The translations under genes and the position numbers were made by a program. From contig JAGLRQ010000095.1 in assembly GCA_023136205.1 (NCBI GenBank), positions 1-13,171 on the forward strand: a stretch of 13,171 nt of DNA. The letters are read 5' to 3'. This document shows positions 1 to 13,171 of this stretch, piece by piece. Position 1 is the stretch's first letter. Every line of letters begins with the position of its first letter. This DNA is from Candidatus Auribacterota bacterium (GTDB lineage Bacteria; Auribacterota; UBA6266). The notes under the pieces were generated by a model. It searched no databases. It saw only the letters and a program-made list of their open reading frames with translations, and had not been told where the DNA came from.

Positions 1-174
1 GACTTCGGCCGCTTGCCTGGGGAAGGCCAAAGAAGAAAAAATAGTCGCTGTCCCTATTTTACGTATATTTATTACGATGAAGAGAATAATCAAATACTTG
101 TAGATTATGAAGCAAAGGAAGCAGGGAAGCATTACACAATAAAGGGTGTAAATTTTCAAAATATAAGGAAATAG
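1..174 (+). CDS. 3' end of a CDS entering from the left edge (57 codons plus TAG); hypothetical protein, possibly a paralogue of the 2010-2771 product
   Basis: Frame 1 is open from nt 1 to TAG 172-174 (followed by TAA 175-177). It reads ...CPYFTYIYYDEENNQILVDYEAKEAGKHYTIKGVNFQNIRK*. It is not in the ORF track because it has no start and is under 60 aa. The ending (YIYYD...VNFQNIRK) loosely resembles the ending of the 2010-2771 protein (ISYYIDD...LDIRYDNLRVR). The same repeat element follows both stop codons. Confidence 0.45.
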   Translation, partial: DFGRLPGEGQRRKNSRCPYFTYIYYDEENNQILVDYEAKEAGKHYTIKGVNFQNIRK

Positions 175-233
175 TAAGAAAATAGAAGGAAATAGGGAGC
201 AGACACCTATTAAATTCCTCGACGACAAACTCC
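160..233 (+). repeat. Repeat element copy R1 (full length), beginning at the stop codon of the 1-174 CDS
   Basis: AATATAAGGAAATAGTAAGAAAATAGAAGGAAATAGGGAGCAGACACCTATTAAATTCCTCGACGACAAACTCC. Three tandem GAAATAGnnn units of about 10-11 nt. Hairpin AATAGG 191-196 / CCTATT 206-211 with a 9-nt loop. The right arm CTCGACGACAAAC matches CTCGATGACAAAG in R3. Confidence 0.7.
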
Positions 234-342
234 TTTTTTGTTGATTAATTTTTTGATGTATTTTTTTAATATTGCAGTCGTGGTATATCCCTCCCAGAGC
301 AACTTTGTTTTAAATTATTCTTCGCAAGTCACTTTCATTCGG

Positions 343-380
343 CACGTGCCGATAATCCCCGGATTATCCGACGTGTTTTT
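343..380 (+). terminator. Rho-independent terminator candidate (probably ends the transcript of the left-edge gene or a short RNA)
   Basis: CACGT 343-347 pairs with ACGTG 371-375. GATAATC(C) 351-358 pairs with (G)GATTATC 361-368. There is a small internal loop, and TTTTT 376-380 follows immediately. Confidence 0.55.
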
Positions 381-384
381 CTGT

Positions 385-552
385 CACAAAAGCCGCTAAA
401 AAAGAAGCACCTTTTGCGCCAGAAAAATCCCCTCATTCCGTTAGACATAACAAGTTCTGTCTACTTGCCGGCTTGTGGTTTATCAGGTGTAGTACACGAT
501 GGCATCGTTGCTCTTCCCACCCCGGCATAGCACTGGATAACGCGGATGTATA
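385..552. other. GC-enriched non-coding segment with nested helices; unclassified candidate structured RNA or decayed sequence
   Basis: No ORF of 60 aa or more in any frame; the short ORFs lack SD sequences. Helices seen by eye: TAGACA 442-447 / TGTCTA 458-463; TGCCGG 466-471 / CCGGCA 522-527 enclosing GTGG 475-478 / CCAC 517-520 and ACGAT 496-500 / ATCGT 504-508. Visibly more GC-rich than the flanking AT-rich DNA. I recognised no known riboswitch, tRNA, tmRNA, SRP or RNase P signature. Confidence 0.25.
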
Positions 553-583
553 TTTTTTTAGCTGCAAATAGCAGCTAAAAAAA
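553..583. repeat. Perfect inverted repeat, 13-bp arms, 5-nt spacer
   Basis: TTTTTTTAGCTGC 553-565, AAATA 566-570, GCAGCTAAAAAAA 571-583. The T-run is 5' and the A-run 3' of the GC core on both strands, so the runs pair with each other rather than acting as a terminator U-tract. Confidence 0.8.
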
Positions 584-646
584 AGAAGAAAAATCTTTTA
601 CTACTAATAAATAGTATTATGAGTATAGATTCATTGAAGGGGTTAC

Positions 647-675
647 TTGACAATACTACTTATAAGTGGTATTGT
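647..675 (+). promoter_or_regulatory. sigma70-type promoter of the NTase/HTH operon
   Basis: TTGACA 647-652, 17-nt spacer, TATTGT 670-675 preceded by TGG 667-669 (extended -10 TGn). The predicted transcription start lies just upstream of or at the SD GGAGG 682-686, giving a very short leader. Confidence 0.5.
653..672. promoter_or_regulatory. 20-bp palindrome (candidate operator) filling the -35/-10 spacer
   Basis: ATACTACTTA|TAAGTGGTAT: 9 of 10 positions are complementary, with the single T657/G668 mismatch. It starts directly after the -35 hexamer and overlaps the first 3 nt of the -10. Confidence 0.45.
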
Positions 676-691
676 ATTGTTGGAGGTTAAG

Positions 692-1387
692 ATGAAAGAT
701 ATTCCATATTTAGTTAGTGAACAAAAAAGAATTACTAAACTAGTTATCGAAAATTTTAAGAGTTATTATTTGACTGGCGGTACAGCGTTATCATTCTATT
801 TGAACCACCGGTTTTCTGAAGATTTAGATTTTTTCACTCATAATTATAAAAAAGAAGATCCAAATAAGATTATGGAATTTATTAAACAGAAAACGGGTTT
901 TGAATTTGAACCTGGGGATGAACAGGATGATCCAAAGTTTATTCCTATTCGGATATTTTATTTAGGGCTTAAAGATGAAGAAAATTTGAAGGTTGATTTT
1001 GTACAGGATTATACAGAAAACATTGAAGATATTAAAGATGGATTACATTCTATAAAAGATATTTATTATAGGAAGTTAATTTCTGCTGTTGGTTTAGGGG
1101 AAAAAGAATCTGAATTGGGTCGACTCGTACCAACTGGCCGGCAAGAAACAAAGGATTTGTACGATATTTATTGTTTATCAACAAAATTTGAACCTTTGTC
1201 AGAGTTCTTTTTTGAATATTTTTCTTATGATAAAGCTGAGAGACTTATTATTTGGTATAAAACATTTAATAGAACTAACTTGAAATTTGAATTATTGGAT
1301 TTAGTTGAAAATATTGATGTACAGAAAATATTAAAAGCATTAGATGATGAGATACTTAAAAAGATTCCTGACAAGTTGATATCCTAA
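692..1387 (+). CDS. Nucleotidyltransferase, AbiEii/AbiGii (DUF1814)-like putative toxin, 231 aa
   Basis: Frame is that of track ORF 647..1387. I prefer ATG 692 (GGAGG 682-686, 5-nt spacer), because TTG 647 is the -35 hexamer of the promoter. Motif YLTGGTALSFYLNHRFSEDLDFF: GG at nt 776-781 and D-x-D at nt 821-829. This is the pol-beta NTase G[GS]-x(9-13)-DxD pattern in the GGTAL...RFSEDxDF form that I recognise from AbiEii proteins. A second AbiEii-like motif, KDLYDIY, lies at nt 1151-1171. Confidence 0.75.
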   Translation: MKDIPYLVSEQKRITKLVIENFKSYYLTGGTALSFYLNHRFSEDLDFFTHNYKKEDPNKIMEFIKQKTGFEFEPGDEQDDPKFIPIRIFYLGLKDEENLKVDFVQDYTENIEDIKDGLHSIKDIYYRKLISAVGLGEKESELGRLVPTGRQETKDLYDIYCLSTKFEPLSEFFFEYFSYDKAERLIIWYKTFNRTNLKFELLDLVENIDVQKILKALDDEILKKIPDKLIS

Positions 1388-1397
1388 GGAGATTAAA

Positions 1398-1910
1398 ATG
1401 AAGAGAAATTGGCTTTGGGATAGCCGTCTTAGTGTAGAGGAAGCCGAAAATATTCTTAAGGATAGATCAGATCCCAGATTTGACTATTTTGCAGAGAAGT
1501 TGATTTCGAGAGATAGTCCGAAAGTTGTTTTTGACTTGATGAGTGAAGAATCTTTCTGTAGGAGATGGCCGCAAATTAAAAAAAGGATGAGAAAGAATCA
1601 ATGGTCAAAGCAAAGAGTTGATTTCTGGGATGTGATATACAAGAGGGTTTATGCCCAGCTTAAAGAAAAAGGAATAATGATCAGGAAGCCGGAGAGAGTT
1701 GACATTTCTCATGAGCGAATGGAAGTATCAACTCAAATTAGAAAGATACGTAAATCTACAGGGCTTACTCAAAAAGATGTTGCAGGTAGGTTGGGAGTAA
1801 TACAACAGTATATATCTAAAATTGAGACAGGACATGAGAATATTTCCATAGATACTTTAAAACGGATTGCTGATGTATTGGACAAAAAGTTAATAGTTAG
1901 GTTGCGATAA
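1398..1910 (+). CDS. XRE-family helix-turn-helix protein with an uncharacterised ~105-aa N-terminal domain; putative antitoxin/regulator
   Basis: ATG 1398 is preceded by AAGGAG 1386-1391, which overlaps the NTase stop TAA 1385-1387, with a 6-nt spacer. Residues ~110-165 (nt ~1725-1895), QIRKIRKSTGLTQKDVAGRLGVIQQYISKIETGHENISIDTLKRIADVL, form a classic XRE/Cro-type HTH. I do not recognise the N-terminal part (WLWDSRLSVEEAENILKDRSDPRF...RVDFWDVIY). Confidence 0.8.
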   Translation: MKRNWLWDSRLSVEEAENILKDRSDPRFDYFAEKLISRDSPKVVFDLMSEESFCRRWPQIKKRMRKNQWSKQRVDFWDVIYKRVYAQLKEKGIMIRKPERVDISHERMEVSTQIRKIRKSTGLTQKDVAGRLGVIQQYISKIETGHENISIDTLKRIADVLDKKLIVRLR

Positions 1911-1950
1911 GAGATATATAGTTTAGGAAAATAGGGGAAAATAGGGACAC
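1911..1950 (+). repeat. Repeat element copy R2 (left part only), beginning right after the HTH gene stop
   Basis: GAGATATATAGTTTAGGAAAATAGGGGAAAATAGGGACAC. It aligns with R3 (GAGATATATA[TTA]GTTTAGGAGAAAATAGGGAAATAGGGTC). The hairpin and right arm of R1/R3 are absent. Confidence 0.65.
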
Positions 1951-2009
1951 GTTGAGCTAGCCCGGATTTAACGGACACTGTAAAATGGAGACAGATAAAA
2001 GGCGGATTT

Positions 2010-2771
2010 ATGAAAACAAATCTATATAGAGTTGTTATTATAGTTTTAGGATTGGTTTCACTAATGTCCAAGAGTGGATGTTATCATTTAACGAAAAAGC
2101 AAGAATGGAATACTATTGCCATGTTTGACTTTGATAAAGGCGGGATATGGAATATATCACTTGAGGAAACGGACCCTGGTCTTATTTGGTCTATTGTAGA
2201 TGATGCGGGTCGATTCTCAGGCATCACTCAAGATACTGAATGGATTGGAAACCGCATTTGGTTACCAGTTACTGGAGATAAATGTACAACAATAGAGATT
2301 TCTGGTGATTTTAAAATTAACCAAAGCAGTGGTCATCAATTGGTAGGTCTCTGGGGACTAACAGATAATAATAAAATTGGCTGGAGTCCTTTATGTATGT
2401 ACTTCGAAGGTAAAAATGGTACGGGATGTTATTATATTCAAACGCGCTGGCTAAAACTTAAATCCAAACGTATACAGAAGAGAAAAACCAAACGTGGGAT
2501 TGTTTTTTTGCAAGGTGAAACGGCTAAGGCGGTTAAGCATGAGTTTAGTAACCCCCAAAAAGGTTTTCATACGATGAAGATGGTGCTTAATAGAGAATCC
2601 TCTGAGATATCATATTATATCGATGATATCTCTTTAGGAGTAGTCAAGGTAGAAGGCGAAATAGGTCCAATTACAAAAGTGATGATGGATATCGAAACTC
2701 CTGTATCGGGAGTAGAATTGGATATTCGGTATGATAACCTTAGAGTACGAAGTTCTGGAGATATATATTAG
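2010..2771 (+). CDS. Secreted or membrane-anchored hypothetical protein, beta-sandwich (concanavalin-A/LamG-like or DUF1080-like) by impression
   Basis: The 253-aa ORF starts with a basic then hydrophobic N-terminus, MKTNLYRVVIIVLGLVSLMSKSGC (Cys24; the lipobox is imperfect because position -3 is K). The body is strand-like, with ISYYIDDISLG and LDIRYDNLRVR endings typical of lectin-like jelly rolls. The fold call is weak. Confidence 0.6.
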   Translation: MKTNLYRVVIIVLGLVSLMSKSGCYHLTKKQEWNTIAMFDFDKGGIWNISLEETDPGLIWSIVDDAGRFSGITQDTEWIGNRIWLPVTGDKCTTIEISGDFKINQSSGHQLVGLWGLTDNNKIGWSPLCMYFEGKNGTGCYYIQTRWLKLKSKRIQKRKTKRGIVFLQGETAKAVKHEFSNPQKGFHTMKMVLNRESSEISYYIDDISLGVVKVEGEIGPITKVMMDIETPVSGVELDIRYDNLRVRSSGDIY

Positions 2772-2835
2772 TTTAGGAGAAAATAGGGAAATAGGGTCAA
2801 TAGCCCCCTAATAAACTTCTCGATGACAAAGTCTC
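2757..2835 (+). repeat. Repeat element copy R3 (full length), overlapping the last codons and stop of the 2010-2771 CDS
   Basis: GGAGATATATATTAGTTTAGGAGAAAATAGGGAAATAGGGTCAATAGCCCCCTAATAAACTTCTCGATGACAAAGTCTC. Hairpin TAGGG 2792-2796 / CCCTA 2806-2810 has a 9-nt loop, the same loop length as in R1. Confidence 0.7.
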
Positions 2836-3019
2836 TCAACAATTACCGGTTGTATTATTTGAGGCGTTTTTTTTAGGGTTTTAAGACAGAATTTTATATC
2901 GTCATGGTTTCCCAAACAAAAGAATTTTACGATATCTTTTTCCCGCAAATAAGCTATGCGGCTGCTTTTAATTCGTCCTGTGGATACTTATCCTCAAAGA
3001 AAACCTCTTTAGGTATCAT
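2808..3019 (-). pseudogene. Possible decayed small ORF (frameshifted), unknown family
   Basis: On the minus strand, ATG at 3019-3017 opens MIPKEVFFEDKYPQDELKAAA, ending at a stop (2956-2954). A second frame continues ...YLREKDIVKFFCLGNHDDIKFCLKTLKKTPQIIQPVIVERLCHREVY* with its stop at 2810-2808 inside R3. There is no SD. The ending V.V....HREVY* is only reminiscent of RelE/ParE-type C-termini. Confidence 0.2.
2834..2874 (+). terminator. Possible intrinsic terminator of the 2010-2771 gene
   Basis: TCTCAA 2834-2839 pairs with TTGAGG 2859-2864 (one G-U). There is an inner ACAA/TTGT helix around loop TTACCGG, then GC and T8 at 2867-2874. The stem is AT-rich and interrupted. Confidence 0.4.
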
Positions 3020-3037
3020 TAGAATTTCTTTAATATA

Positions 3038-3066
3038 TTGACAGTACTCGTTTAACAAAATATAAT
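3038..3066 (+). promoter_or_regulatory. Consensus sigma70 promoter for the uppS operon
   Basis: TTGACA 3038-3043, exactly 17 nt, TATAAT 3061-3066; 38 nt upstream of the uppS ATG. Confidence 0.7.
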
Positions 3067-3104
3067 CTCCGTTGATAATTTTCCGGCAGTTAACAGGTGA
3101 ATAT

Positions 3105-3833
3105 ATGGATAAAATAACTATTCCTGAACATATAGCGATTATAATGGATGGAAACGGCCGCTGGGCTAAGAAGCGGGGCCTTCCCAGGGTAAAAGGGCAC
3201 TATGAAGGCGCCAAAGGGGTAAGGGGTATTGTTGAATCCTGCTCGGACATTGGTGTTAAATACCTGACGCTCTATGCTTTTTCAACGGAGAACTGGAAAC
3301 GTCCCAAGGCCGAAATCTGGGCGCTTATGGCTTTGCTTAAAAGATTTCTTAAGGCTGAACTTAAAACAATGATGAAGAATGATATCCGGTTTAAGACTAT
3401 CGGGGATATTAAAAAACTTCCGTCCGATGTTCGCGCTGAAATAAAGTCTGTAACTAAGAAGACCGCGCTTAATAGGGGCCTTACTTTTATCCTCGCTTTA
3501 AACTATGGTTCAAGGCCCGAAATTGTTAAAGCAGCAAGGGCAATCGCTAAAGAATGTGTTGAAGGAAAGATTAATCCTTCTTCTATTGATGAGAGCGTTT
3601 TTGAAAAACATTTAGACACCTGTGATATTCCTGACCCCGACCTGCTTATAAGAACCAGCGGGGAGATGAGAATAAGCAATTTCCTTTTGTGGCAATTGTC
3701 TTATTCCGAATTTTATATTACCGATGTGCTGTGGCCGGACTTCGATAAAAAAGAACTGAAAAAAGCTGTCAGGGAATATTCAAAAAGGGAAAGAAGATTT
3801 GGAGAAACCCGCAAAAAGGCTGTGAAAGAATGA
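3105..3833 (+). CDS. uppS: Undecaprenyl (isoprenyl) diphosphate synthase
   Basis: HIAIIMDGNGRWAKKRGL, YAFSTENWKRP and RTSGEMRISNFLLWQLSYSEFY are hallmark cis-prenyltransferase motifs. I prefer ATG 3105 (MDKITIPEH...) over the track's TTG 3072, which lies only 6 nt after the -10 hexamer. Confidence 0.93.
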   Translation: MDKITIPEHIAIIMDGNGRWAKKRGLPRVKGHYEGAKGVRGIVESCSDIGVKYLTLYAFSTENWKRPKAEIWALMALLKRFLKAELKTMMKNDIRFKTIGDIKKLPSDVRAEIKSVTKKTALNRGLTFILALNYGSRPEIVKAARAIAKECVEGKINPSSIDESVFEKHLDTCDIPDPDLLIRTSGEMRISNFLLWQLSYSEFYITDVLWPDFDKKELKKAVREYSKRERRFGETRKKAVKE

Positions 3834-4663
3834 ATGATCTCCACAAAAGACTTTTTAGCTCGGCAGTATTAACATTACTGCTTCTATCATTGATAGTTTT
3901 TGATGTGCCTTTGGTTATTGCTCTGGGGGCTTTAGCATTTGTTTTCCTGGGCTCTGTTGAATTCTACGATCTGGTTCAGCAAAAAGGGCTCAAAGCCTCA
4001 AAATGGTACGGGACAATCAGTAACATTGTTATTATCGTTCTGGTTGTTGTCTTTGCTGTTAAGGGAAAGAATTCTCTTTCTATTCTTCCGTGGATATTTT
4101 TACTATGCGCTATCGGCGCGTTTGTAAGACAGTTATTCGTTAGTACCACCAACCACGCGATATTCGGTATTTCTACGACAATACTTGGTATTTTTTATAT
4201 GGGGTATCTTTTTAGCTTCCTGGTTTTATTAAGGTTTTTCCCTTCTATGGAACAGGGTAAATGGTATCTTCTTTCCGCGGTAATGATGATAAAGTTTTCC
4301 GATATGTTCGCGTTTTTCGCGGGTTCGCTTTTTGGCAGGCACAAGATAAATTCAACAATAAGCCCTAATAAATCTATTGAAGGGCTTGTCGCTGGTGTGA
4401 TTGGTTCAATCGTGGGCGGGTTGGTAGTTTACTTTTTTATTGACGCGGTAAATTTCCGGTTTATTGATGCTCTGGTTCTGGGTTTTATAATAGGTGTTAT
4501 GGCTGAAATCGGTGACTTTTCGGAATCTTTGCTTAAACGGGATGCCGAGATAAAAGATTCCAATCGGCTTCTTCCCGGGATGGGAGGGATCCTGGATGTT
4601 CTGGATAGCACTCTTTTGTGTGCCCCGATATTCTATTTTTATGTGAGGTACATTATAAAATAG
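3830..4663 (+). CDS. cdsA: Phosphatidate cytidylyltransferase (CDP-diglyceride synthase)
   Basis: Polytopic membrane protein with the C-terminal signature region SLLKRDAEIKDSNRLLPGMGGILDVLDS. The start ATG 3830 overlaps the uppS stop (ATGA). Its position between uppS and dxr is the canonical one. Confidence 0.85.
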   Translation: MNDLHKRLFSSAVLTLLLLSLIVFDVPLVIALGALAFVFLGSVEFYDLVQQKGLKASKWYGTISNIVIIVLVVVFAVKGKNSLSILPWIFLLCAIGAFVRQLFVSTTNHAIFGISTTILGIFYMGYLFSFLVLLRFFPSMEQGKWYLLSAVMMIKFSDMFAFFAGSLFGRHKINSTISPNKSIEGLVAGVIGSIVGGLVVYFFIDAVNFRFIDALVLGFIIGVMAEIGDFSESLLKRDAEIKDSNRLLPGMGGILDVLDSTLLCAPIFYFYVRYIIK

Positions 4664-4665
4664 TC

Positions 4666-5829
4666 ATGAAAAAGAAAAAAATTTCCATTTTAGGTTCTAC
4701 GGGTTCGATAGGCAGGAACTGCCTTGATGTGGTTAGAAATAGCGGCGGCAGGTTTAAAATTGTTTCCTTGAGCGCGGGGTCAAATGTAAAGCTTCTTGCC
4801 GCTCAGATAAAAGAGTTTAATCCCCGTGTTGCTGTTATTGGCAGCGTCTCAAAGGTTGGAGAATTGAAAAAGCTGGTTCCCCGATCTGTGAAAGTTACGG
4901 GGGGGATGGAAGGTTTATGCGGGATTGCGTCGGGAAGGGATGTTGATATTTTTGTATCAGCATTGGTGGGTTCGGCGGGTCTGCTCCCGACGATTGAGGC
5001 AGTTAAAACAGGCAAGAGAGTAGCGCTGGCTAACAAGGAATCTCTGGTAATGGCGGGCGAGTTTGTGATGAAACTCGCGAGAAAAAAAGGTACGGAGATA
5101 CTGCCGGTTGACAGTGAGCACAGTGCTGTCTTCCAGTGTATTTCAGCCAACAGGAAAGAAACAGTGAGAAAGATTACCCTTACAGCTTCCGGAGGCCCGT
5201 TTCTTAAAACCGGTATTTCACAAATGAAAAACATGACTCCTTCAAAGGCTCTTAAGCATCCGCGGTGGAAAATGGGAGCTAAGGTGACTATAGATTCGGC
5301 GACACTGATGAATAAAGCCCTGGAAGTAATCGAGGCAAAATGGCTTTTTGATGTTCCTTCCCACATGATAGATGTAGTTATCCATCCTGAATCGATAGTG
5401 CACTCTTTTGTAGAGTTTGTAGACCGTTCAACAATCGCGCAGATGAGTATTCCTGATATGAGGATTCCGATACAATATGCTCTTACGTATCCCGAGAGAG
5501 TTGCTAATCATGTCAGGCATCTTGATATGGCGCGTATAGGAAAACTTACTTTTGAAAAGCCGGATATGAAGAAATTTCCGGTGCTGAAGCTTGTCTATGA
5601 GGTTTTGAATAAAGGGGGAGTTCTTCCGGCGGTGATGAGTTCGTCAAATGAAGTGGCGGTAAACTCTTACCTGAAAGGCCGGATTAAACTTACGGATATA
5701 TTTAAAGTGGTTAGCAGGGCCGTTAAAGCAAGGAAAGATATAAAGGCAAAGTGTATTGACGATATTTTTAAAGCGGATAAATGGGCCGTGAACTATTCCG
5801 AAGATTTAATAAATAGAAAGGTATTTTAA
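4666..5829 (+). CDS. dxr: 1-deoxy-D-xylulose 5-phosphate reductoisomerase
   Basis: MKKKKISILGSTGSIG (NADPH-binding N-terminus), LANKESLV, PVDSEHSA, ASGGPF, and HPRWKMG then DSATLMNKALEV. I prefer ATG 4666, 2 nt after the cdsA stop, over the track start 4618, which adds 16 non-conserved residues overlapping cdsA. Confidence 0.93.
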   Translation: MKKKKISILGSTGSIGRNCLDVVRNSGGRFKIVSLSAGSNVKLLAAQIKEFNPRVAVIGSVSKVGELKKLVPRSVKVTGGMEGLCGIASGRDVDIFVSALVGSAGLLPTIEAVKTGKRVALANKESLVMAGEFVMKLARKKGTEILPVDSEHSAVFQCISANRKETVRKITLTASGGPFLKTGISQMKNMTPSKALKHPRWKMGAKVTIDSATLMNKALEVIEAKWLFDVPSHMIDVVIHPESIVHSFVEFVDRSTIAQMSIPDMRIPIQYALTYPERVANHVRHLDMARIGKLTFEKPDMKKFPVLKLVYEVLNKGGVLPAVMSSSNEVAVNSYLKGRIKLTDIFKVVSRAVKARKDIKAKCIDDIFKADKWAVNYSEDLINRKVF

Positions 5830-7421
5830 TGGAAATTTTGATTGGTATTTTAATTCAAGCGCTGACATTTGTAATTTTTCTCGGAATCCTGGTCTTCGTT
5901 CATGAGCTTGGACATTTTGTTGTTGCCAAGCTTATGAATATATATGTTTTTGAGTTTATGCTCGGGTTTCCCCCTAAGATTTTCAGGATAAAGAGAAAAG
6001 AAACCGAGTATGGTATCGGAATGATACCCCTCGGAGGCTATGTAAAAATGGCCGGACAGGAAGACTTTCCCGGGCATGAGGAAGATGAATCACAAAAACC
6101 GGATATAAATGTTCCCGAAGATAGGAAGTTTAATAGTAAAAAGATATGGCAGAGAATGGCGGTAATAGTCGCGGGCCCTTTTACGAATCTAGTATTCGGC
6201 GCCCTGGTTTTTATACTTTTGTTTGTGGTGGGACATCAAGTTGATCTTGGTGTGGAAAAGAATTTTATCGGTTTTGTAAGAGAAGATTCTCCTGCCCAAA
6301 AGGCGGGGATTAAAGTCGGAGACAGAATATCTTCGGTTAACGGTGCTAAAACAGAAACCTTTAGTGATATAAGGTGGAATATACTTTCTCATGTTAATGA
6401 AGAAATAGAAATTGGAGTAGAAAGAGATAAGGAATTTCTTTTGTTAAGAGCTGTTCCGGAAAAACCCGGGGGTAAAGAGATGGGGGGAGTAGGCATTGGG
6501 CCGTTCCATTTTGTAGAGATAAAACGGGTTGATGAAGGTTCCCCCGCGGAAAAAGCCGGCGCTTATGCGGGAGATATAATTTTTAAAGTTAATAATGAGT
6601 ACGCGCAGTACTTTGATGTATACGAGAAGATTGGACAGAGCGGGAAAAAAGGAATATCACTGGTTGTCTTAAGGGATGGCATGGAAAAAACACTTAGGAT
6701 GATACCTGAAGAAGTGGGAAATCTTGATGGTGTGTTGATTCGTTCGGATAACGTGATAATAGTTAGTGATGATAAGAAGGCAAATAAGGCTTTTAAAACG
6801 GGAGACAAGATACTTTCCTTTGGAGGGGTTGAAGTTTCAGAAAAAGAAAATGCCGTTAATCTAATAAATTTTTTTGAGGGAGATGAAGCCGAAATAGTTC
6901 TTCTGAGAAAGGAAAAAACCGGTTTTATAAAAATGGAAACCAGAGAAATAAGAGTTGTTGCGGAAGTTTCCAGAAAAGGCCTTGTAGGCATCAGCTATTC
7001 TACCGCCACGACACTGGAAAAATATCCTTTGCCGAAAGCTATTTCAAAAGGGCTGGAATTATCTGCCTCTACGTTAAAAATGGTCGTGGGCGGTATAGTT
7101 CTTCTTTTTAAGGGTAAGGTTGGAACTGACCAGATGGCCGGCCCTGTAGGAATTTTTAAAATGACATCAATGGCCGCGAGCCAGGGTTTTTCTTCCCTTT
7201 TGCGGTTTCTTGGATTATTAAGCATGGCGCTTGCCTTTTTCAATATTTTACCTTTGCCGGTATTGGATGGCGGACATGTTTTTCTACTCCTTATTGAGAA
7301 GATAAAAGGAAGCCCGATAAAGGAAAAATATATTATCGCGTGGCAGAAAGTGGGAATTGTCCTGATTATATCGTTACTGCTCTTTGTAACGTTTAATGAT
7401 GTACGCTGGAGGATTTTTTAG
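5829..7421 (+). CDS. rseP: RIP site-2 metalloprotease RseP/YluC family, 530 aa
   Basis: HELGHF (HExxH) in the first TM segment, NILPLPVLDGGH near the C-terminus, and PDZ-like segments in between. The ATG overlaps the dxr TAA by 1 nt (TAATG). Confidence 0.9.
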   Translation: MEILIGILIQALTFVIFLGILVFVHELGHFVVAKLMNIYVFEFMLGFPPKIFRIKRKETEYGIGMIPLGGYVKMAGQEDFPGHEEDESQKPDINVPEDRKFNSKKIWQRMAVIVAGPFTNLVFGALVFILLFVVGHQVDLGVEKNFIGFVREDSPAQKAGIKVGDRISSVNGAKTETFSDIRWNILSHVNEEIEIGVERDKEFLLLRAVPEKPGGKEMGGVGIGPFHFVEIKRVDEGSPAEKAGAYAGDIIFKVNNEYAQYFDVYEKIGQSGKKGISLVVLRDGMEKTLRMIPEEVGNLDGVLIRSDNVIIVSDDKKANKAFKTGDKILSFGGVEVSEKENAVNLINFFEGDEAEIVLLRKEKTGFIKMETREIRVVAEVSRKGLVGISYSTATTLEKYPLPKAISKGLELSASTLKMVVGGIVLLFKGKVGTDQMAGPVGIFKMTSMAASQGFSSLLRFLGLLSMALAFFNILPLPVLDGGHVFLLLIEKIKGSPIKEKYIIAWQKVGIVLIISLLLFVTFNDVRWRIF

Positions 7422-7426
7422 ATTTC

Positions 7427-8491
7427 ATGGAAAGAAGAAAGACAAGAAAGATTAAGGTTGGTAGTGTTGAGGTTGGAGGTAATGCCCCGGTTTCAATCCA
7501 GTCCATGACTAAAACGGATACAAAAAATGTTGAAGCTACCTTAAAGCAGATAAGAGATCTTGAAAAAGAAGGCTGTGAGATTGTAAGAGTCGCGGTTAGC
7601 GATTCGGCTTGCATAAAACCTTTTAAAAAGATTGTTAACGGCAGTTCTATTCCGGTTGTTGCTGATATCCATTTTGATTACCGCCTTGCCATAAAATCTG
7701 CCGAGGCCGGCGCTGATTGTCTCAGGATTAATCCGGGAAATATCAGTTCAATAGAAAACATAAAAGCTGTGGCGGACTGCGCGAAGAAAAACGGGGTTTC
7801 CATAAGGGTTGGTGTGAATTCCGGTTCTCTGGAAAAAGATTTACTGGAAAAGTATTCTCATCCGGTTGCCGAAGCTCTTGTTGAAAGTGCTTTGAGAAAC
7901 ATAAAGATTTTAGAAAACGCGGGTTTTGAGGATATGAAAATATCCATAAAATCCACAAGCGTTCCCGACACTTATAAAGCATACAGTCTTCTTGCGAAAA
8001 GAGTTGACTATCCTTTTCACATAGGCGTTACGGAATCAGGCCCTCTTTTCTCGGGAACTGTTAAGTCCGCCGTTGGAATAGGTGCTCTTCTTCTGGAAGG
8101 GATAGGGGATACCTTAAGGGTTTCCCTTTCAGCGGATCCGGTTCAGGAAGTTCGGGTAGCGAAGGCGATCCTTCAGTCTGCCGGGATAAGGGCATTTGGG
8201 CCCGACATAGTGTCGTGCCCTACCTGCGGGAGAGCCGAGATAGATGTCCAGAAGCTCGCGTCCGAAATTGAAGAATTTACTTGTAGAATTAAAGAACCAA
8301 TAACAATTGCCGTTATGGGTTGTTCTGTTAATGGCCCGGGAGAAGCGAAGGAAGCGGATATCGGAATAGCCGGCGGAAAAAACATTGGAATTATTTTTAA
8401 AAAAGGTAAGATTATTAAGAAAGTACCATCCGAAAAATTACTTTCTGAGTTTAAAAAAATTATTGCGGGAGAAATAAATGCGCTGGAGTAA
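7427..8491 (+). CDS. ispG: 4-hydroxy-3-methylbut-2-enyl diphosphate synthase (GcpE)
   Basis: RKIKVGSVEVGGNAPVSIQSMT, RINPGN, SCPTCGR and MGCSVNGPGE (Fe-S ligand motifs). Confidence 0.93.
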   Translation: MERRKTRKIKVGSVEVGGNAPVSIQSMTKTDTKNVEATLKQIRDLEKEGCEIVRVAVSDSACIKPFKKIVNGSSIPVVADIHFDYRLAIKSAEAGADCLRINPGNISSIENIKAVADCAKKNGVSIRVGVNSGSLEKDLLEKYSHPVAEALVESALRNIKILENAGFEDMKISIKSTSVPDTYKAYSLLAKRVDYPFHIGVTESGPLFSGTVKSAVGIGALLLEGIGDTLRVSLSADPVQEVRVAKAILQSAGIRAFGPDIVSCPTCGRAEIDVQKLASEIEEFTCRIKEPITIAVMGCSVNGPGEAKEADIGIAGGKNIGIIFKKGKIIKKVPSEKLLSEFKKIIAGEINALE

Positions 8492-10193
8492 AGCACTGAT
8501 ACCGACTTTGAAGCAATCGCCCGCGGAAGCGGAGGTTGTCAGCCACAAGCTGATGATACGTGCCGGAATGATAAGAAAGCTTGCTTCGGGTATATATAGT
8601 TATATGCCTCTTTGCCTTAGGGTAATAGATAAAGTTGAAACAATAGTAAGAGAAGAAATGGACAAAGCGGGCGCTCAGGAGCTTCTGATGCCGGTATTGT
8701 CTCCTTCAGAACTCTGGATAGAAAGCGGCAGGTGGGATGTTTATGGCAAGGAGCTTATGCGCCTTGAAGACCGCAATGAAAAACATTTTGCGTTAGGCCC
8801 TACTCATGAAGAAGTTATAACTGATATTGCAAGAAGAGAATTAAGGTCATATAAACAGCTTCCCGTTTGTCTTTATCAGATTCAAACGAAGTTTCGGGAC
8901 GAAATCCGTCCCCGGTTCGGCGTTATGAGGGGAAGAGAATTTACGATGAAAGATGCCTACAGTTTTCATCCGACTAAAGAGTGTCTTAATAAATACTATA
9001 AACTTATGTTTGAAGTTTATTCGGATATATTTAAGCGCTGTGGGCTTAAGTTCAGGGCGGTTTTAGCGGATTGTGGGGCTATCGGAGGCGATGAAACTCA
9101 TGAGTTTATGGTCCTTGCTTCTTCGGGTGAGTCTCTGGTTTTAAGTTGTCCTGATGACACCTGCGGTTATGCGGCAACGGATGATACGGCTAAAAGCAAG
9201 ATACTATCCGTGGAAGAAAATTTATCGGGTGAGCTTTGTGAAAAAGATACTCCCGGGAAAAAGAGTGTTGAAGATGTGTCTGCCTTTTTGAATGTGAATC
9301 CCTTTAACCTTATAAAAACCCTTGTTTACAAAACGTCAAAAGAACCGGTGGTTGTTCTCGTGAGAGGTGACAGGGAAATCAACATTAGTAAGCTTAAAAA
9401 GGTTTTAAAAGATGAACTTGTTGAGCTGGCCGATGATAAGACGACAACGGATATATCAGGTTGTGAAGTAGGGTTTGCCGGGCCTGTCGGGCTTAAACAA
9501 AAAGTAAAAGTTATCGTAGATTTAACTATTAAAAATATGGGTTGCGGTGTGACGGGCGCCAATAAGAAAGATAAGCATTATGTCAATGTAGTGCCCGGCA
9601 AAGATTTTGATGTCGAAAAATATTACGATATTGCAATGGCTAAAGCCGGTGACCTGTGCGTAAAATGTTCAAAGCCGCTTGAAGAATTCAGGGGAATTGA
9701 AGTAGGCCAGATATTTAAACTGGGTGCTAAGTACAGCAAGTCCATGGATGCAAATTATACGGGGGAAGACGGGAAAGCAAAACCTTTTATCATGGGCTGT
9801 TACGGGATAGGAATAACAAGGACAATAGCGGCGGCTATCGAACAGAACAATGACGAAAACGGAATTATATGGCCCATGGAAATAGCGCCGTATCAGGTTA
9901 TTTTAATTGGTGTTAACATGAAGGACACGCAAACCGTTGCTATTTGTGAGGAACTGTACAAAGAACTTAAGGAAAAAAGCATTGAAGTTCTTTATGATGA
10001 CAGGGATCAGAGAGCAGGATTTAAGTTTAAGGATGCGGATCTTATTGGGGTTCCTTATAAAGTTGTGGTTAGCGAGAAAAATCTTAAAGAGAACAAGGTT
10101 GAAATACAGGAAAGAAGGTCGGGGAGCAGGGATTTTACTCCCCGGGATAATGTTATAAATTATATTCAGTCCAAAATCTATCCATTATTCTAA
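8478..10193 (+). CDS. proS: Proline--tRNA ligase, bacterial type with insertion (editing) domain, 571 aa
   Basis: MRWSKALIPTLKQSPAEAEVVSHKLMIRAGMIRKLASGIYSYMPL, FRDEIRPRFGVMRGREFTMKDAYSF and GCYGIGITR. The start overlaps the ispG end by 14 nt. Confidence 0.93.
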   Translation: MRWSKALIPTLKQSPAEAEVVSHKLMIRAGMIRKLASGIYSYMPLCLRVIDKVETIVREEMDKAGAQELLMPVLSPSELWIESGRWDVYGKELMRLEDRNEKHFALGPTHEEVITDIARRELRSYKQLPVCLYQIQTKFRDEIRPRFGVMRGREFTMKDAYSFHPTKECLNKYYKLMFEVYSDIFKRCGLKFRAVLADCGAIGGDETHEFMVLASSGESLVLSCPDDTCGYAATDDTAKSKILSVEENLSGELCEKDTPGKKSVEDVSAFLNVNPFNLIKTLVYKTSKEPVVVLVRGDREINISKLKKVLKDELVELADDKTTTDISGCEVGFAGPVGLKQKVKVIVDLTIKNMGCGVTGANKKDKHYVNVVPGKDFDVEKYYDIAMAKAGDLCVKCSKPLEEFRGIEVGQIFKLGAKYSKSMDANYTGEDGKAKPFIMGCYGIGITRTIAAAIEQNNDENGIIWPMEIAPYQVILIGVNMKDTQTVAICEELYKELKEKSIEVLYDDRDQRAGFKFKDADLIGVPYKVVVSEKNLKENKVEIQERRSGSRDFTPRDNVINYIQSKIYPLF

Positions 10194-10209
10194 AGTTGCT
10201 GGTTTTTTC

Positions 10210-10238
10210 TTGACATTCAGCATCAGGTAAAATATACT
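10210..10238 (+). promoter_or_regulatory. sigma70 promoter for nusA-infB
   Basis: TTGACA 10210-10215, 17 nt, TATACT 10233-10238. Confidence 0.6.
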
Positions 10239-10281
10239 CCCACGGACGTAGAAATTTGCAATGTTTAAAGAAGGTGGGAAT

Positions 10282-10298
10282 AAGCGCCCGCTTTTTTT
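10282..10298 (+). terminator. Weak hairpin plus T7 in the nusA leader (possible attenuator)
   Basis: AAGC 10282-10285 pairs with GCTT 10290-10293 (loop GCCC). The T-run 10292-10298 lies between the promoter and the nusA SD. The stem is only 4 bp. Confidence 0.2.
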
Positions 10299-10326
10299 AT
10301 TGGGGTTAAAACAGGAGATAAATTGT

Positions 10327-11574
10327 ATGAGCGGTGAGTTGTTATCTATCCTGGACTATCTGGAGAGAGAAAAGGGGATTGACAGAGAAACGTTAATCTC
10401 TGCCGTTGAAAGTTCTTTGCTGTCCGCGGCCAGGAAAAGTATGCTTTCTGAAAAATCTGTTGAGATAAAAATTGACCGGAAAACAGGGGAAATCAAGGCT
10501 TATGCCATGCTTGAAGTTGTAAAAAAGGTTGAAGATCCTGACAAGGAAGTTTTACTGCGTGATGCCAAAAAGATTGATCCAAAAACCAAAGTTGGAGAGG
10601 AAATAAGAATAGAAATCAACCAAAAGGGTTTTGGCAGGATAGCGGCGCAGACTGCTAAACAGGTTATTATTCAGAAGCTGAAGGAAGCTGAGAGGGAAAA
10701 TGTCTTCAATGAGTATAAAGACAGAGTTGGAGATATTGTTCTCGGAGCCGTCCGCAGGTTTGAAAAGGGGAACATTATAGTTGACCTGTCAAACGCGGAA
10801 GCTATTTTGCCTTACAAAGAGCAGTGTCCGGGGGAATCTTATAGTCCCGGAAACAGGATAAGGGCTTATATATATGATGTCAAGCTTGGCCCAAAAGGCC
10901 CCGAGATTTTACTTTCGCGGGCGCATCCCAATTTTGTTATAAAATTATTTGAACTGGAAGTCCCTGAAATTATCGAAGGCAGCGTGGAGGTGAAAGGGAT
11001 AGCCCGGGAACCCGGATATAGAACCAAGATAGCTGTTTCTTCTTCGGATGAAAAAATTGACTGTGTTGGTGCCTGTGTGGGGTTAAGGGGTTCACGCGTA
11101 AAAAATATTGTAGCTGAACTGGGAAACGAGAAGATAGATATTGTAAGGTGGTGTGAAGATATTGCAGCCTATGTATCCGAGGCTCTCAATCCCGCGAAAT
11201 TAAGGACTGTAGACGTTTCTGAAAACGGCAAGATGGTAACGGTTGGGGTGGATGACGACCAGCTGTCCCTGTCTATAGGGAAGAAAGGGCAGAATGCCCG
11301 GCTGGCGGCGAAGCTTGTGGGATGCAGGATTGACATCAAAAAAGCATCTGAAATAAATGTACTCGGTAAAATTGAGCATGCCTGGCACCAACTGGCCAAG
11401 ATTGAAGATATCGATGAAAAGATCGCCCAGTGTCTGGTTGAAGCCGGGTACACTGATGTTGACGGGCTTGCCCTTGCCACCGTTGAAGATTTAATGAAGA
11501 TACCTGGTATTGACGGTGAGAGTGCCGCGGCAATAGTAGAAGCTGTAAAAAAAATAAAAGAGGATAAGACTTGA
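10327..11574 (+). CDS. nusA: Transcription termination/antitermination factor NusA, 415 aa
   Basis: N-terminus MSGELLSILDYLEREKGIDRETLISAVESSL, an S1 segment (GDIVLGAVRRFEKGNIIVDL), KH motifs (CVGACVGLRGSRVKNIVAELGNEKIDIV; LSLSIGKKGQNARLAAKLVG) and a C-terminal HhH. I prefer ATG 10327 (AGGAG 10313-10317, 9-nt spacer) over the track start 10261, which would read through the leader hairpin. Confidence 0.92.
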   Translation: MSGELLSILDYLEREKGIDRETLISAVESSLLSAARKSMLSEKSVEIKIDRKTGEIKAYAMLEVVKKVEDPDKEVLLRDAKKIDPKTKVGEEIRIEINQKGFGRIAAQTAKQVIIQKLKEAERENVFNEYKDRVGDIVLGAVRRFEKGNIIVDLSNAEAILPYKEQCPGESYSPGNRIRAYIYDVKLGPKGPEILLSRAHPNFVIKLFELEVPEIIEGSVEVKGIAREPGYRTKIAVSSSDEKIDCVGACVGLRGSRVKNIVAELGNEKIDIVRWCEDIAAYVSEALNPAKLRTVDVSENGKMVTVGVDDDQLSLSIGKKGQNARLAAKLVGCRIDIKKASEINVLGKIEHAWHQLAKIEDIDEKIAQCLVEAGYTDVDGLALATVEDLMKIPGIDGESAAAIVEAVKKIKEDKT

Positions 11575-13171
11575 GAGTTCACGAATTAGCAAAAGAATTA
11601 TCAGTAACAAGTAAAAAAGTTATAGAGATATTAAAGGTCAATGGTGTTGTTGTTAAAGGGCACATGTCTTCTGTCAGCAGTGATGCCATAGCTGTCGTTA
11701 AAAATATTTTAGCCAAAGTTACAAAGGAAGCACCTGTAAAAAAACCTGTTTCAGATAAAGTAAAAGAAGAAAAGAAGGTTGAGAAAGCTGCAAAGGAAAT
11801 ACCTGTAGAAAAACCTGTTTCAGAAGAGACTTCAAAAAAAGTTTTAGATATCGAAACACCGATTTCCGTTAAAGATTTATCCGGCCAGATGAATATCAAG
11901 CCTAATGAACTCATAGCAAAACTTATGGCTTTGGGAATTTTTGCTTCGCTTAACCAGAGGCTGGATACAGAAACCACCGAAATTGTACTTCATGAATACG
12001 GTTTTGATCTTTTGAAAAAAGAGCGCAAAAAGGAACCTGAAATCCAGCCGATTCCCGAGAAGAGCAGCATAATTGAAGAAGATTTGCTGGAGGAAATAGA
12101 AGACAAGCCTGAGGATTTAAAACCTCGACCGCCTGTTGTTGCCTTTTTAGGGCATGTTGACCATGGCAAGACAACCCTGCTCGATTATATAAGGAAAACA
12201 AAAGTAGTTGCCGGAGAACACGGAGGGATAACCCAGCATATAGGCGCGTACAGGGTTCATATGAAGGGTACTTCGATCACGTTTCTTGATACTCCCGGCC
12301 ATGCGGCTTTTACCGCGATGAGGGCAAGGGGGGCCAATATTACGGATATAGTGGTCCTGATAATTGCCGCGGATGATGGTATTATGCCTCAAACAGTTGA
12401 AGCTATAAATCATTCAAAGGCGGCCGGTGTTACGATTATGGTTGCCATTACAAAGGTTGACAAGCCTGATGTAAATATAGACACAGTGAAAAGACAGCTT
12501 AGTGAGCTGGAGCTTATGCCCGAAGACTGGGGAGGAGAATTGATATGCTGCCCGGTTTCGGGAATAACCGGAGAAGGAGTAGAACATCTGCTTGAAATGA
12601 TACCTCTACAGGCTGAAGTGCTTGATCTTAAGGCGAATCCAAACAGGCCCGCGCAGGGTACCGTGATTGAAGCAAAATTGACAAGTGGTAAGGGCCCCAT
12701 AGCTGTTGTTCTGGTGGAAAAAGGGACATTGAAGCGTGGAGACTATGTAATTAGCGGATTATATTACGGAAAGGTAAAAGCGCTTGTAGATGAACACGGG
12801 AAGATGCTGAAAGAAGCGGCGCCTTCTGTTCCGGTGGAGATTCTTGGGCTTTCGGGGGTTCCTGAAGCCGGTTCTGATTTTCGTGTGGTTGCTGACGAAA
12901 AGAAGGCAAGAACTATTTCTCAGGCCCGGGCCAACCGGCATAAATTTGAACAACTGGATACGCGTCAGAAAATAACCCTTGAGAATTTGTATGATCATAT
13001 CCGGATGGGAAGCGCGCGCGAACTTAAAATTGTTTTGAAAAGCGATGTCCAGGGTTCAATGGAAGCTCTGGTTAAATCCCTTGAATCCATAGATTCAAAA
13101 GAGGTGAATCTTAATATTATCCATAGCGGCATAGGTGATATTAACGAATCTGACATTATGCTGGCTTCCGC
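11571..13171 (+). CDS. infB: Translation initiation factor IF-2, N-terminal ~533 codons (continues beyond the window)
   Basis: Not in the ORF track. The frame is open from TTG 11571 to the window end: [21 protein letters not shown] (IF2_N), a second IF2_N ([22 protein letters not shown]), then the G domain [17 protein letters not shown] (from nt 12135), DTPGH and TKVD. GAGG 11560-11563 lies 7 nt upstream. TTG overlaps the nusA TGA (TTGA). Confidence 0.9.
11722..11824 (+). repeat. In-frame direct duplication in the IF-2 N-terminal linker
   Basis: CAAAGGAAGCACCTGTAAAAAAACCTGTTTCAGA (11722-11755) versus CAAAGGAAATACCTGTAGAAAAACCTGTTTCAGA (11791-11824). 31 of 34 nt identical; the 69-nt offset equals 23 codons ([11 protein letters not shown] / [11 protein letters not shown]). 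Confidence 0.8.

Follow-up and report, generated by a model that had tools for sequence, protein, structure and literature searches.

The DUF1814/AbiEii/MenT toxins are nucleotidyltransferases (NTases) under active study, and carry polymerase-β motifs I and II, hG[GS] ... R-x-x-x-D-h-D with a family-specific arginine, together with a motif IV, +DxxD (Dy et al., PMC3985639). In COG5340/COG4861 pairs the regulator gene comes first (Dy et al., PMC3985639; Makarova et al.), and some DUF1814 genes are worded as lying upstream of their regulator or antitoxin (PMC11375011; bioRxiv 10.64898/2026.01.19.700257, on RlegTA). It was recently proposed that structurally unrelated antitoxins all neutralise DUF1814 toxins by inducing autophosphorylation of one active-site serine or threonine. 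Residues in an [ST]-x-D setting, namely MenT1 T39 (R37-F38-T39-R40-D41), MenT3 S78 and Streptococcus agalactiae AbiEii T65 (ahead of D67/D69; PMC11375011; bioRxiv 10.64898/2026.01.19.700257; PMC3985639), are autophosphorylated upon antitoxin binding (PMC11375011; bioRxiv 10.64898/2026.01.19.700257). Here we describe a two-gene cassette from a Candidatus Auribacterota bacterium, found at positions 647–1910 of contig JAGLRQ010000095.1 (assembly GCA_023136205.1; positions 1–13,171 of the forward strand were analysed, and this 13,171-nt stretch is referred to as the window). In it, an AbiEii-type NTase gene is followed by a gene for a protein that joins an undescribed N-terminal domain (the N-domain) to an XRE-type helix-turn-helix (HTH). 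We read the cassette, with a probability of roughly 0.7, as an AbiEii-type toxin–antitoxin (TA) module with a new class of antitoxin.

The first gene (692–1387, + strand) encodes a putative toxin of 231 aa. Its Shine–Dalgarno (SD) sequence, as read from the DNA, is GGAGG at 682–686 (+ strand), and the reading frame opens with ATG at 692; a program-called TTG at 647 falls within the promoter-like stretch described below. Relatives of the protein are many, with 57–63% identity, and nearly all are of 231 aa, a length that supports ATG 692 as the start. The initial annotation had pointed to an AbiEii-like protein carrying GGTAL...RFSEDLDF and KDLYDIY, and both motifs were located in this open reading frame (ORF). 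The profile search then agreed: Pfam AbiEii (PF08843) matched with E = 7.8 × 10−16 and 59.2 bits, against a cut-off of 22.5, aligning residues 23–218 with profile positions 13–224 of 238. Several PADLOC AbiEii models also matched (best 1.4 × 10−9), and no NCBIfam model was reached by the NTase. This very protein, from a Candidatus Auribacterota/Aureabacteria metagenome-assembled genome (MAG), is recorded at NCBI as MCK4947899.1 under the name 'nucleotidyl transferase AbiEii/AbiGii toxin family protein'.

Motifs I and II of DUF1814 are present in the NTase as G29-G30-T-A-L and R40-F-S42-E-D44-L-D46-F, and the family-specific motif IV as K154-D155-L-Y-D158-I-Y. In an alignment of 21 NTase sequences, G29, G30, R40, S42, D46, D102, K128, R150, D155 and D158 were invariant, and D44 and K154 were kept in at least 90%. 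The invariant R127-K128 is a candidate for motif III, a lysine in a hydrophobic context, as judged from the sequence alignment. The NTase family profile matched the solved chains 4o8s and 4ok0, both deposited as 'Putative', through G-x-TAL...RFSEDLDF and R..RDLFDL, with motif IV aligning to the R..RDLFDL of 4o8s. We take these chains to be the Helicobacter pylori DUF1814 protein JHP933. S42, found in all 21 sequences, stands two residues ahead of the first catalytic aspartate, and so corresponds to the phospho-acceptors of MenT1, MenT3 and AbiEii, a correspondence of motif and not of superposed structures. By sequence, then, nothing sets the NTase apart from other members of this known toxin family, and its catalytic motifs are intact.

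The second gene (1398–1910) encodes a partner protein of 170 aa, with ATG at 1398, 10 nt beyond the NTase stop codon TAA (1385–1387). Its SD sequence, AAGGAG (1386–1391, + strand), overlaps that stop codon, as first described, and the overlap is consistent with translational coupling of the two genes. Coupled translation, through the 10-nt gap here or a 4-nt overlap in relatives of greater divergence, would fit a stoichiometric complex. The C-terminal ~60 residues had been called an XRE HTH, and residues 114–165 indeed matched HTH_3 (PF01381) with E = 3.6 × 10−15. The region (1710–1892, aa 105–165, + strand) is thus a putative operator-binding autorepressor domain. In an AlphaFold2 (AF2) model of the full partner, with a predicted local distance difference test score (pLDDT) of 84.8, the HTH was closest among solved folds to the restriction–modification (R-M) controllers C.BclI, C.AhdI and C.Esp1396I and to HipB, with template-modelling scores of about 0.75–0.87, relative to the target, over ~61–66 columns.

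The N-terminal part of the partner was of a different kind. The AF2 model placed five helices in residues 1–90, followed by a linker (91–104), giving an all-helical N-domain of ~100 aa without a wing. The N-domain (1398–1667 for aa 1–90, + strand), a putative NTase-binding and neutralising part, is strongly conserved, with the motifs N-W-L-W-D, F-C-x-x-W-P-x-I-K-K and F-W. Residues 1–105 had been reported to resemble nothing recognisable; they gave no match in Pfam, NCBIfam or PADLOC, nor among PDB sequences. When 23 N-domain homologues were scanned at E ≤ 10, no family matched the N-domain, all AbiEi/COG5340 families included. Foldseek searches with an N-domain-only model (pLDDT 77.6) returned no match in PDB or BFVD, and in the structural search with the full partner model no match spanned the N-terminal part. 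These results agree with the earlier view that the domain is not AbiEi-like. An exhaustive N-domain profile search of 1.84 billion representatives yielded 132 clusters at 50% identity, with the domain N-terminal in every one. Domain content was checked in 20 longer or atypical members, all of which had HTH_3 after the N-domain, as did 60 of another 63 members that were scanned. On the evidence of these searches, the N-domain is a new, previously unannotated domain family.

Conservation of the pair was surveyed from both sides. A scan for the N-domain, restricted to one genome per species and with the NTase checked by tblastn, gave 38 loci. A full-length NTase gene lay directly upstream on the same strand in 30 of these. 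Of the other eight, two were cut by contig ends and two lacked an NTase (L025, L027); in the remaining four the gene had decayed, through a frameshift (L013) or internal deletions (L022, L037), or down to a remnant of 27 residues (L045). In a further lineage, of MAGs named Actinobacteria at source, the NTase is split at codon 87/88 while the partner is intact (L008 389–2957; L006 4156–4906; L007 2018–2359); the break is a frameshift scar in one assembly and an IS605-type insertion (resolvase and OrfB/TnpB) in another. From the other side, an NTase-anchored scan of metagenomes recovered 27 loci belonging to this subfamily, and all 25 that had downstream sequence encoded an N-domain protein immediately after the NTase. 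Orphan partners do occur, but no orphan NTase of this subfamily was seen among the 25 informative loci.

Altogether, the exact pair, in the order NTase then partner, was found in about 60 loci from many phyla, which answers the question of its conservation raised at the outset. Both proteins belong to large, length-conserved families and are neighbours in dozens of unrelated genomes, so their pairing goes far beyond chance. The NTase is lost while the partner stays, and the reverse was not seen, as would be expected of a toxin and its antidote. A tandem arrangement of two complete NTase–partner modules was also observed on one metagenome contig (L069 2–2754).

The DNA ahead of the NTase gene holds a sigma-70-like promoter (647–675, + strand) that reads TTGACA-17-TGTATTGT, with a −35 box TTGACA at 647–652, a 17-nt spacer and a −10 box TATTGT at 670–675 preceded by a TG extension. 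The spacer is filled by a 26-bp near-palindrome, the core of which, TACTACTTATAAGTGGTA at 654–671, overlaps the −10 box. This operator-like palindrome, O2, has one mismatch to the consensus TACTACTTATAAGTAGTA. A second operator-like palindrome, O1 (TACTACTAATAAATAGTA, 599–616, two mismatches to the family consensus), lies 55 nt upstream of O2; L010, L012, L032 and L038 likewise carry a second copy upstream. Across the related loci, the 18-bp palindrome TACTACTTATAAGTAGTA, allowing two mismatches and a distance of at most 45 nt from the start codon, sat inside the promoter, with the −35 box on one side and the −10 box on the other, in 30 of 36 distinct loci from many phyla. The recurrent layout was TTGACA, one to three bases, a perfect TACTACTTATAAGTAGTA, and a right arm running into TATAAT or TATACT.

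In 346 kb of fetched loci, the palindrome was matched 48 times with up to two mismatches, and every match was at a module boundary, including sites upstream of orphan partners. TACTACTTATAAGTAGTA hardly changes even between loci whose proteins are down to about 55% identity. Where the palindrome did vary, it varied with the recognition helix, QQYIS being found with TACTA..TAGTA and QQIIS with CAACA..TGTTG. A palindrome in the promoter spacer that changes together with the recognition helix points to autorepression, and we regard autorepression of the cassette through this putative operator as very probable on these sequence comparisons. In L011 (4540–4557) and L035 (4537–4554), an extra perfect 18-bp operator was observed ~25 nt past the partner stop codon; it might control the gene that follows, or be left over from a tandem module.

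Some N-domain and HTH proteins were much longer than the window's partner (320–1300 aa), and carried Mrr_cat, TPR or PIN-TPR-GreABC domains, or unannotated extensions. Four of five long forms examined (P0315, P0312, P0300 and P0346) begin 4 nt before the end of an AbiEii gene directly upstream; the other, P0286, is at a contig edge, where a 21-codon ORF fragment overlaps its start by 4 nt. Long partner relatives of 479–1249 aa, which retain N-domain and HTH, were noted at L047 2238–5825 (1195 aa), L049 5001–7466, L053 4001–7750 and L051 1908–3347, each overlapping the upstream AbiEii stop codon by 4 nt. The long Mrr, TPR and PIN forms may represent a larger nuclease-bearing system built on the NTase and N-domain pair.

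A second variant was found on a plasmid of Variovorax sp. WDL1 (NZ_LR594691.1, 443335–444635; L140 1881–3181), adjoining a tyrosine recombinase. There, the gene for an AbiEii protein of 261 aa (WP_068685058) overlaps by 4 nt the gene after it, which encodes a 'hypothetical protein' of 172 aa (WP_146039601), in which an N-domain of ~105 aa is joined to a C-terminal TrmB/HVO_A0114-like winged helix instead of an XRE domain. Comparison of this partner family with the N-domain family by hhalign gave 86% probability and E = 4.7 × 10−6 over 126 columns, beginning at the W-x-W-D motif; the two N-domains are probably homologous by this profile alignment. The Variovorax-type family is always NTase-first, in TA-rich neighbourhoods, with NTases of 261–280 aa. 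The N-domain therefore accompanies an AbiEii gene whether the DNA-binding part is an XRE or a winged HTH, and with or without large C-terminal extensions. That the N-domain stays constant beside the NTase, and that the DNA-binding or effector part can be swapped, is the main argument for the N-domain as the NTase-specific neutralising part.

The arrangement suggests how the cassette would work. As a self-contained, horizontally mobile unit, it would be expressed from one autoregulated promoter as a bicistronic transcript, with translationally coupled NTase and partner. The NTase would be an active MenT/AbiEii-like toxin that arrests growth by adding nucleotides to tRNA 3′ ends, by analogy with MenT and AbiEii. 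The second gene would supply the antitoxin, its helical N-domain being the NTase-specific part that binds the enzyme, a step that we consider more likely than not. The NTase could be inactivated by sequestration, or by triggered autophosphorylation of Ser42 as in MenT1, MenT3 and AbiEii; we put forward the latter only tentatively, by analogy with those toxins. The XRE HTH, presumably as a dimer, would bind the 18-bp palindrome in the spacer, and its upstream copy, and so repress the operon. We infer the toxicity of the NTase, its action on tRNA, its contact with the N-domain, the phosphorylation route and the binding of DNA by the HTH. The TA logic proposed in the initial annotation gained comparative support from the asymmetric decay, from the palindromic operator inside the promoter, and from the N-domain always accompanying AbiEii.

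In the window, the cassette sits among housekeeping genes: a 253-aa protein of unassigned function is followed by uppS, cdsA, dxr, rseP, ispG, proS, nusA and the start of infB. The 253-aa protein (2010–2771) has a hydrophobic, lipoprotein-like N-terminus ending ...SKSGC and gave no match in Pfam, NCBIfam or PADLOC. It is kept beside uppS in sister Auribacterota MAGs and is elsewhere no part of the module. The cassette was found mainly in uncultivated lineages; partner-anchored loci were mostly from Omnitrophota, with others labelled Clostridia, Actinomycetota, Peregrinibacteria, Ratteibacteria, Firestonebacteria, Auribacterota and Planctomycetia. Its neighbours in other genomes include IS21, a Shedu-like SduA_C gene, PhD/ParE, RadC, HigB-like/XRE pairs, VapC, MazEF and integrases. 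Such varied mobile, TA and defence neighbours, together with roughly 55–60% identity across phyla, would fit horizontal spread. One of the orphan partners, in a Firestonebacteria MAG (L025 3042–4516), has the operator palindrome ~960 nt upstream. The NTase slot there holds an apparently toxin-like 117-aa ORF, RelE/Gp49-like by eye, and a 108-aa XRE protein; a similar pair lies just downstream on the opposite strand.

The region upstream of the cassette (1–690) holds only two program-called ORFs, each of 53 aa, and the window opens with the end of another ORF at 1–43 (last codons ...RLRPLAWGRPKKKK, then stop). Searches of the GC-richer upstream region with Rfam (gathering threshold and E ≤ 1) and ARAGORN found no non-coding RNA and no tRNA. 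At 553–583, some 70 nt before the promoter, there is a perfect palindrome with 13-nt arms, TTTTTTTAGCTGC N5 GCAGCTAAAAAAA; as its T run is ahead of the stem, it does not resemble a terminator read from either strand. Direct repeats at 178–198 and 1927–1947, GAAAATAG(A/G)(A/G)G(G/A)AAATAGGGA, bracket the upstream non-coding region and the module. They are real but were rejected as a feature of the module and may have no meaning, since ~15 such pairs were estimated to arise by chance in this AT-rich 13-kb window; a shuffle test of the repeats is circular, the pattern having been taken from the same data. All assemblies of this genome, several of them independent, break at a point ~870 nt ahead of the NTase gene, a pattern suggestive of a repeated element there; the contig of the sister MAG begins 84 nt ahead of the downstream gene. 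The 72-aa ORF fragment at the upstream contig edge (L135 3–221) had no Pfam match; by impression it is perhaps like the C-terminus of an IS200-like transposase.

Several points weigh against the reading of the cassette as a mobile TA module with a new antitoxin. The co-variation of palindrome and recognition helix is based on few divergent loci, and in the window itself O2 carries one mismatch and the −10 box TATTGT is weak. The N-domain is without a recognisable relative among known antitoxins, and its role is assigned by elimination and association. Mobility is inferred from the patchy distribution and the neighbouring genes: the NTase profile found no relative on IMG/VR viral contigs, and an N-domain tblastn search gave no match among PLSDB plasmids. 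A search of plasmids with the NTase gave three matches only, all distant. A role in defence is also not to be assumed, as S. agalactiae AbiE gave no phage defence in Escherichia coli, with 32 coliphages tried (bioRxiv 10.64898/2026.01.19.700257).

That last result bears on the alternative that survives best, namely that the cassette is mainly an abortive-infection or phage-defence module, in which a phage cue is sensed by the N-domain, or infection leads to its degradation, and the NTase is thereby freed. This overlaps with the TA reading, from which it departs in biological role alone. The first AbiEii members belong to abortive-infection systems, and DUF1814 TA systems such as SanaTA affect T7 (bioRxiv 10.64898/2026.01.19.700257); one lineage of the cassette adjoins the Shedu-like SduA_C gene, and the long forms bear nuclease and TPR domains typical of conflict systems. 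The window's module, however, stands among housekeeping genes (uppS to proS) and not in a defence island, and with the negative coliphage result this leaves a primary defence role rather doubtful.

A plain operon of regulator and enzyme would account for part of the data. Under this alternative the NTase is a non-toxic modifier of a small molecule, an RNA or the partner, the HTH protein is its transcription factor, and the N-domain serves in ligand sensing or oligomerisation. The HTH and the promoter operator point to regulation only, not to neutralisation, and the orphan partners of L025 and L027 show that the regulator is able to persist alone. Three lines of evidence oppose it. Those members of the NTase family that have been characterised are toxins that arrest growth (PMC3985639, PMC10435456, PMC11375011). 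In none of the 25 informative loci does the NTase lack its partner, whereas the partner outlives NTase decay, which addiction predicts and a simple regulator does not. Finally, the module occurs in TA and defence islands, patchily across phyla. We therefore consider this explanation unlikely.

The variant partners also invite a broader interpretation, in which the N-domain is a dedicated AbiEii-docking adaptor that is plugged into varied outputs: XRE HTH, winged HTH, or Mrr-like nuclease, TPR and PIN arrays reaching ~1300 aa. In the long forms, the NTase would then not act as a toxin on its own but would signal within, or license, a new nuclease defence system of several domains, and may, for example, nucleotidylate the adaptor or be gated by it; the window's cassette would be a minimal, regulatory-only version. 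We hold this to be improbable as an account of the family. Least probable by far is a reversed polarity like that of MntA-HepT (type VII), with the upstream NTase as an antitoxin that nucleotidylates a downstream effector: this would follow the usual antitoxin-first convention and is most plausible for the long Mrr-like and PIN forms, where partners with Mrr_cat, TPR or PIN-TPR-GreABC domains still follow the AbiEii gene with a 4-nt overlap, but the window's partner has no effector domain beyond N-domain and HTH, and it is argued against by the direction of decay, as in several loci the partner is intact although its NTase has been destroyed or has disappeared by deletion, which would be lethal were the partner the toxin, and an orphan NTase was unseen among the 25 informative loci.

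If the cassette is a TA module with the partner as antitoxin, it would represent a third, unrelated antitoxin architecture for these toxins, and would offer a clean test of the generality of the autophosphorylation mechanism. The N-domain, a new family, could be included in tools that annotate TA and defence systems, and the 18-bp palindrome would make an unusually well-defined, if putative, operator–repressor pair. The Variovorax plasmid provides a cultured handle, and the long Mrr, TPR and PIN fusions hint at a larger defence system on the same NTase–adaptor pair.

Among other AbiEii pairings, those nearest in clade are uncharacterised. In distant AbiEii clades from the same metagenome scan (L082–L133, e.g. 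L086 727–975 and L091 1552–1791), an ORF of 65–80 aa was observed just upstream, with the consensus WDYD...INYG...KKxW...LLIWGK and weak, sub-threshold DUF6922 matches. This looks like a separate, uncharacterised antitoxin-first pairing. The small ORF shares a loose W-D-Y ... K-K-x-W ... W pattern with the N-domain; it differs in lying upstream and in having no DNA-binding domain. Homology between the two was considered and is not supported, as hhalign gave <1% probability and a score of 13.8, against 9.7 ± 2.5 (maximum 14.8) for column shuffles. DUF6922 (PF21956) was likewise absent, at E ≤ 10, from the matches of 23 N-domains and from the 25 most frequent families of 63 full-length members. 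The Variovorax-type pairs share the NTase-first order and an N-domain of ~105 aa with a C-terminal DNA-binding domain, and differ in the winged helix, the longer NTase and their annotation as hypothetical.

The cassette shares with AbiE (Lactococcus, S. agalactiae; COG5340–DUF1814 pairs) the AbiEii toxin family with motifs I, II and IV, the Ser/Thr two residues before the catalytic aspartate, a bicistronic operon, an antitoxin (putative in the cassette) with a DNA-binding domain, and inverted repeats in the promoter. In AbiE, however, the AbiEi gene is upstream, and its product has an N-terminal winged HTH and an α/β C-terminal antitoxicity domain (COG5340), whereas the window's partner is encoded downstream and has an all-helical N-domain without AbiEi similarity and a C-terminal XRE HTH. 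The palindrome sequence and the class of DNA-binding domain both differ from those of AbiEi. The inverted order and the lack of an AbiEi-like gene noted earlier were upheld, as no AbiEi model of Pfam or PADLOC matched the partner or the ORFs upstream of the NTase. Without an AbiEi/COG5340 antitoxin, the cassette fails the definition of AbiE. With the MenAT systems of Mycobacterium tuberculosis (MenT1, MenT3, MenT4) it shares a DUF1814 NTase, here a putative toxin, with the R-x-[ST]-x-D loop; in MenAT the one toxin fold can be the target of MenA antitoxins that are structurally diverse and unrelated, and that sequester it, induce its autophosphorylation, or both. The antitoxin gene is first in the MenAT systems compared, and profile searches found no MenA homologue in the window.

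Searches of the literature turned up no account of an AbiEii protein with such a partner. Gene order is less distinctive. The initial annotation had called the layout non-canonical, and this stands for the partner protein, which is new; the toxin-first order, in contrast, is perhaps not unprecedented in DUF1814 systems (PMC11375011; bioRxiv 10.64898/2026.01.19.700257). In a check of gene order, the sanaTA locus was not found in the 49 kb of Shewanella ANA-3 plasmid inspected. As two papers place NTase genes upstream in DUF1814 systems, the novelty resides in the partner protein and not in the gene order. In organisation, the cassette resembles HigBA, HipBA and similar systems, as was suggested at the start: the layout and its conserved order put the putative toxin gene first and the co-transcribed gene of the XRE-type putative antitoxin second, palindromes overlap the promoter, and the HTH most resembles HipB and R-M controllers in fold. 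Identity of the partner as an R-M controller (C) protein was rejected, since the HTH fold alone is similar and the adjacent genes are without R-M. The toxins of HigBA and HipBA are a RelE-like RNase or a kinase, whereas the toxin candidate in the window is a nucleotidyltransferase, and its partner, unlike theirs, has a distinct ~100-aa N-terminal domain for putative toxin recognition.

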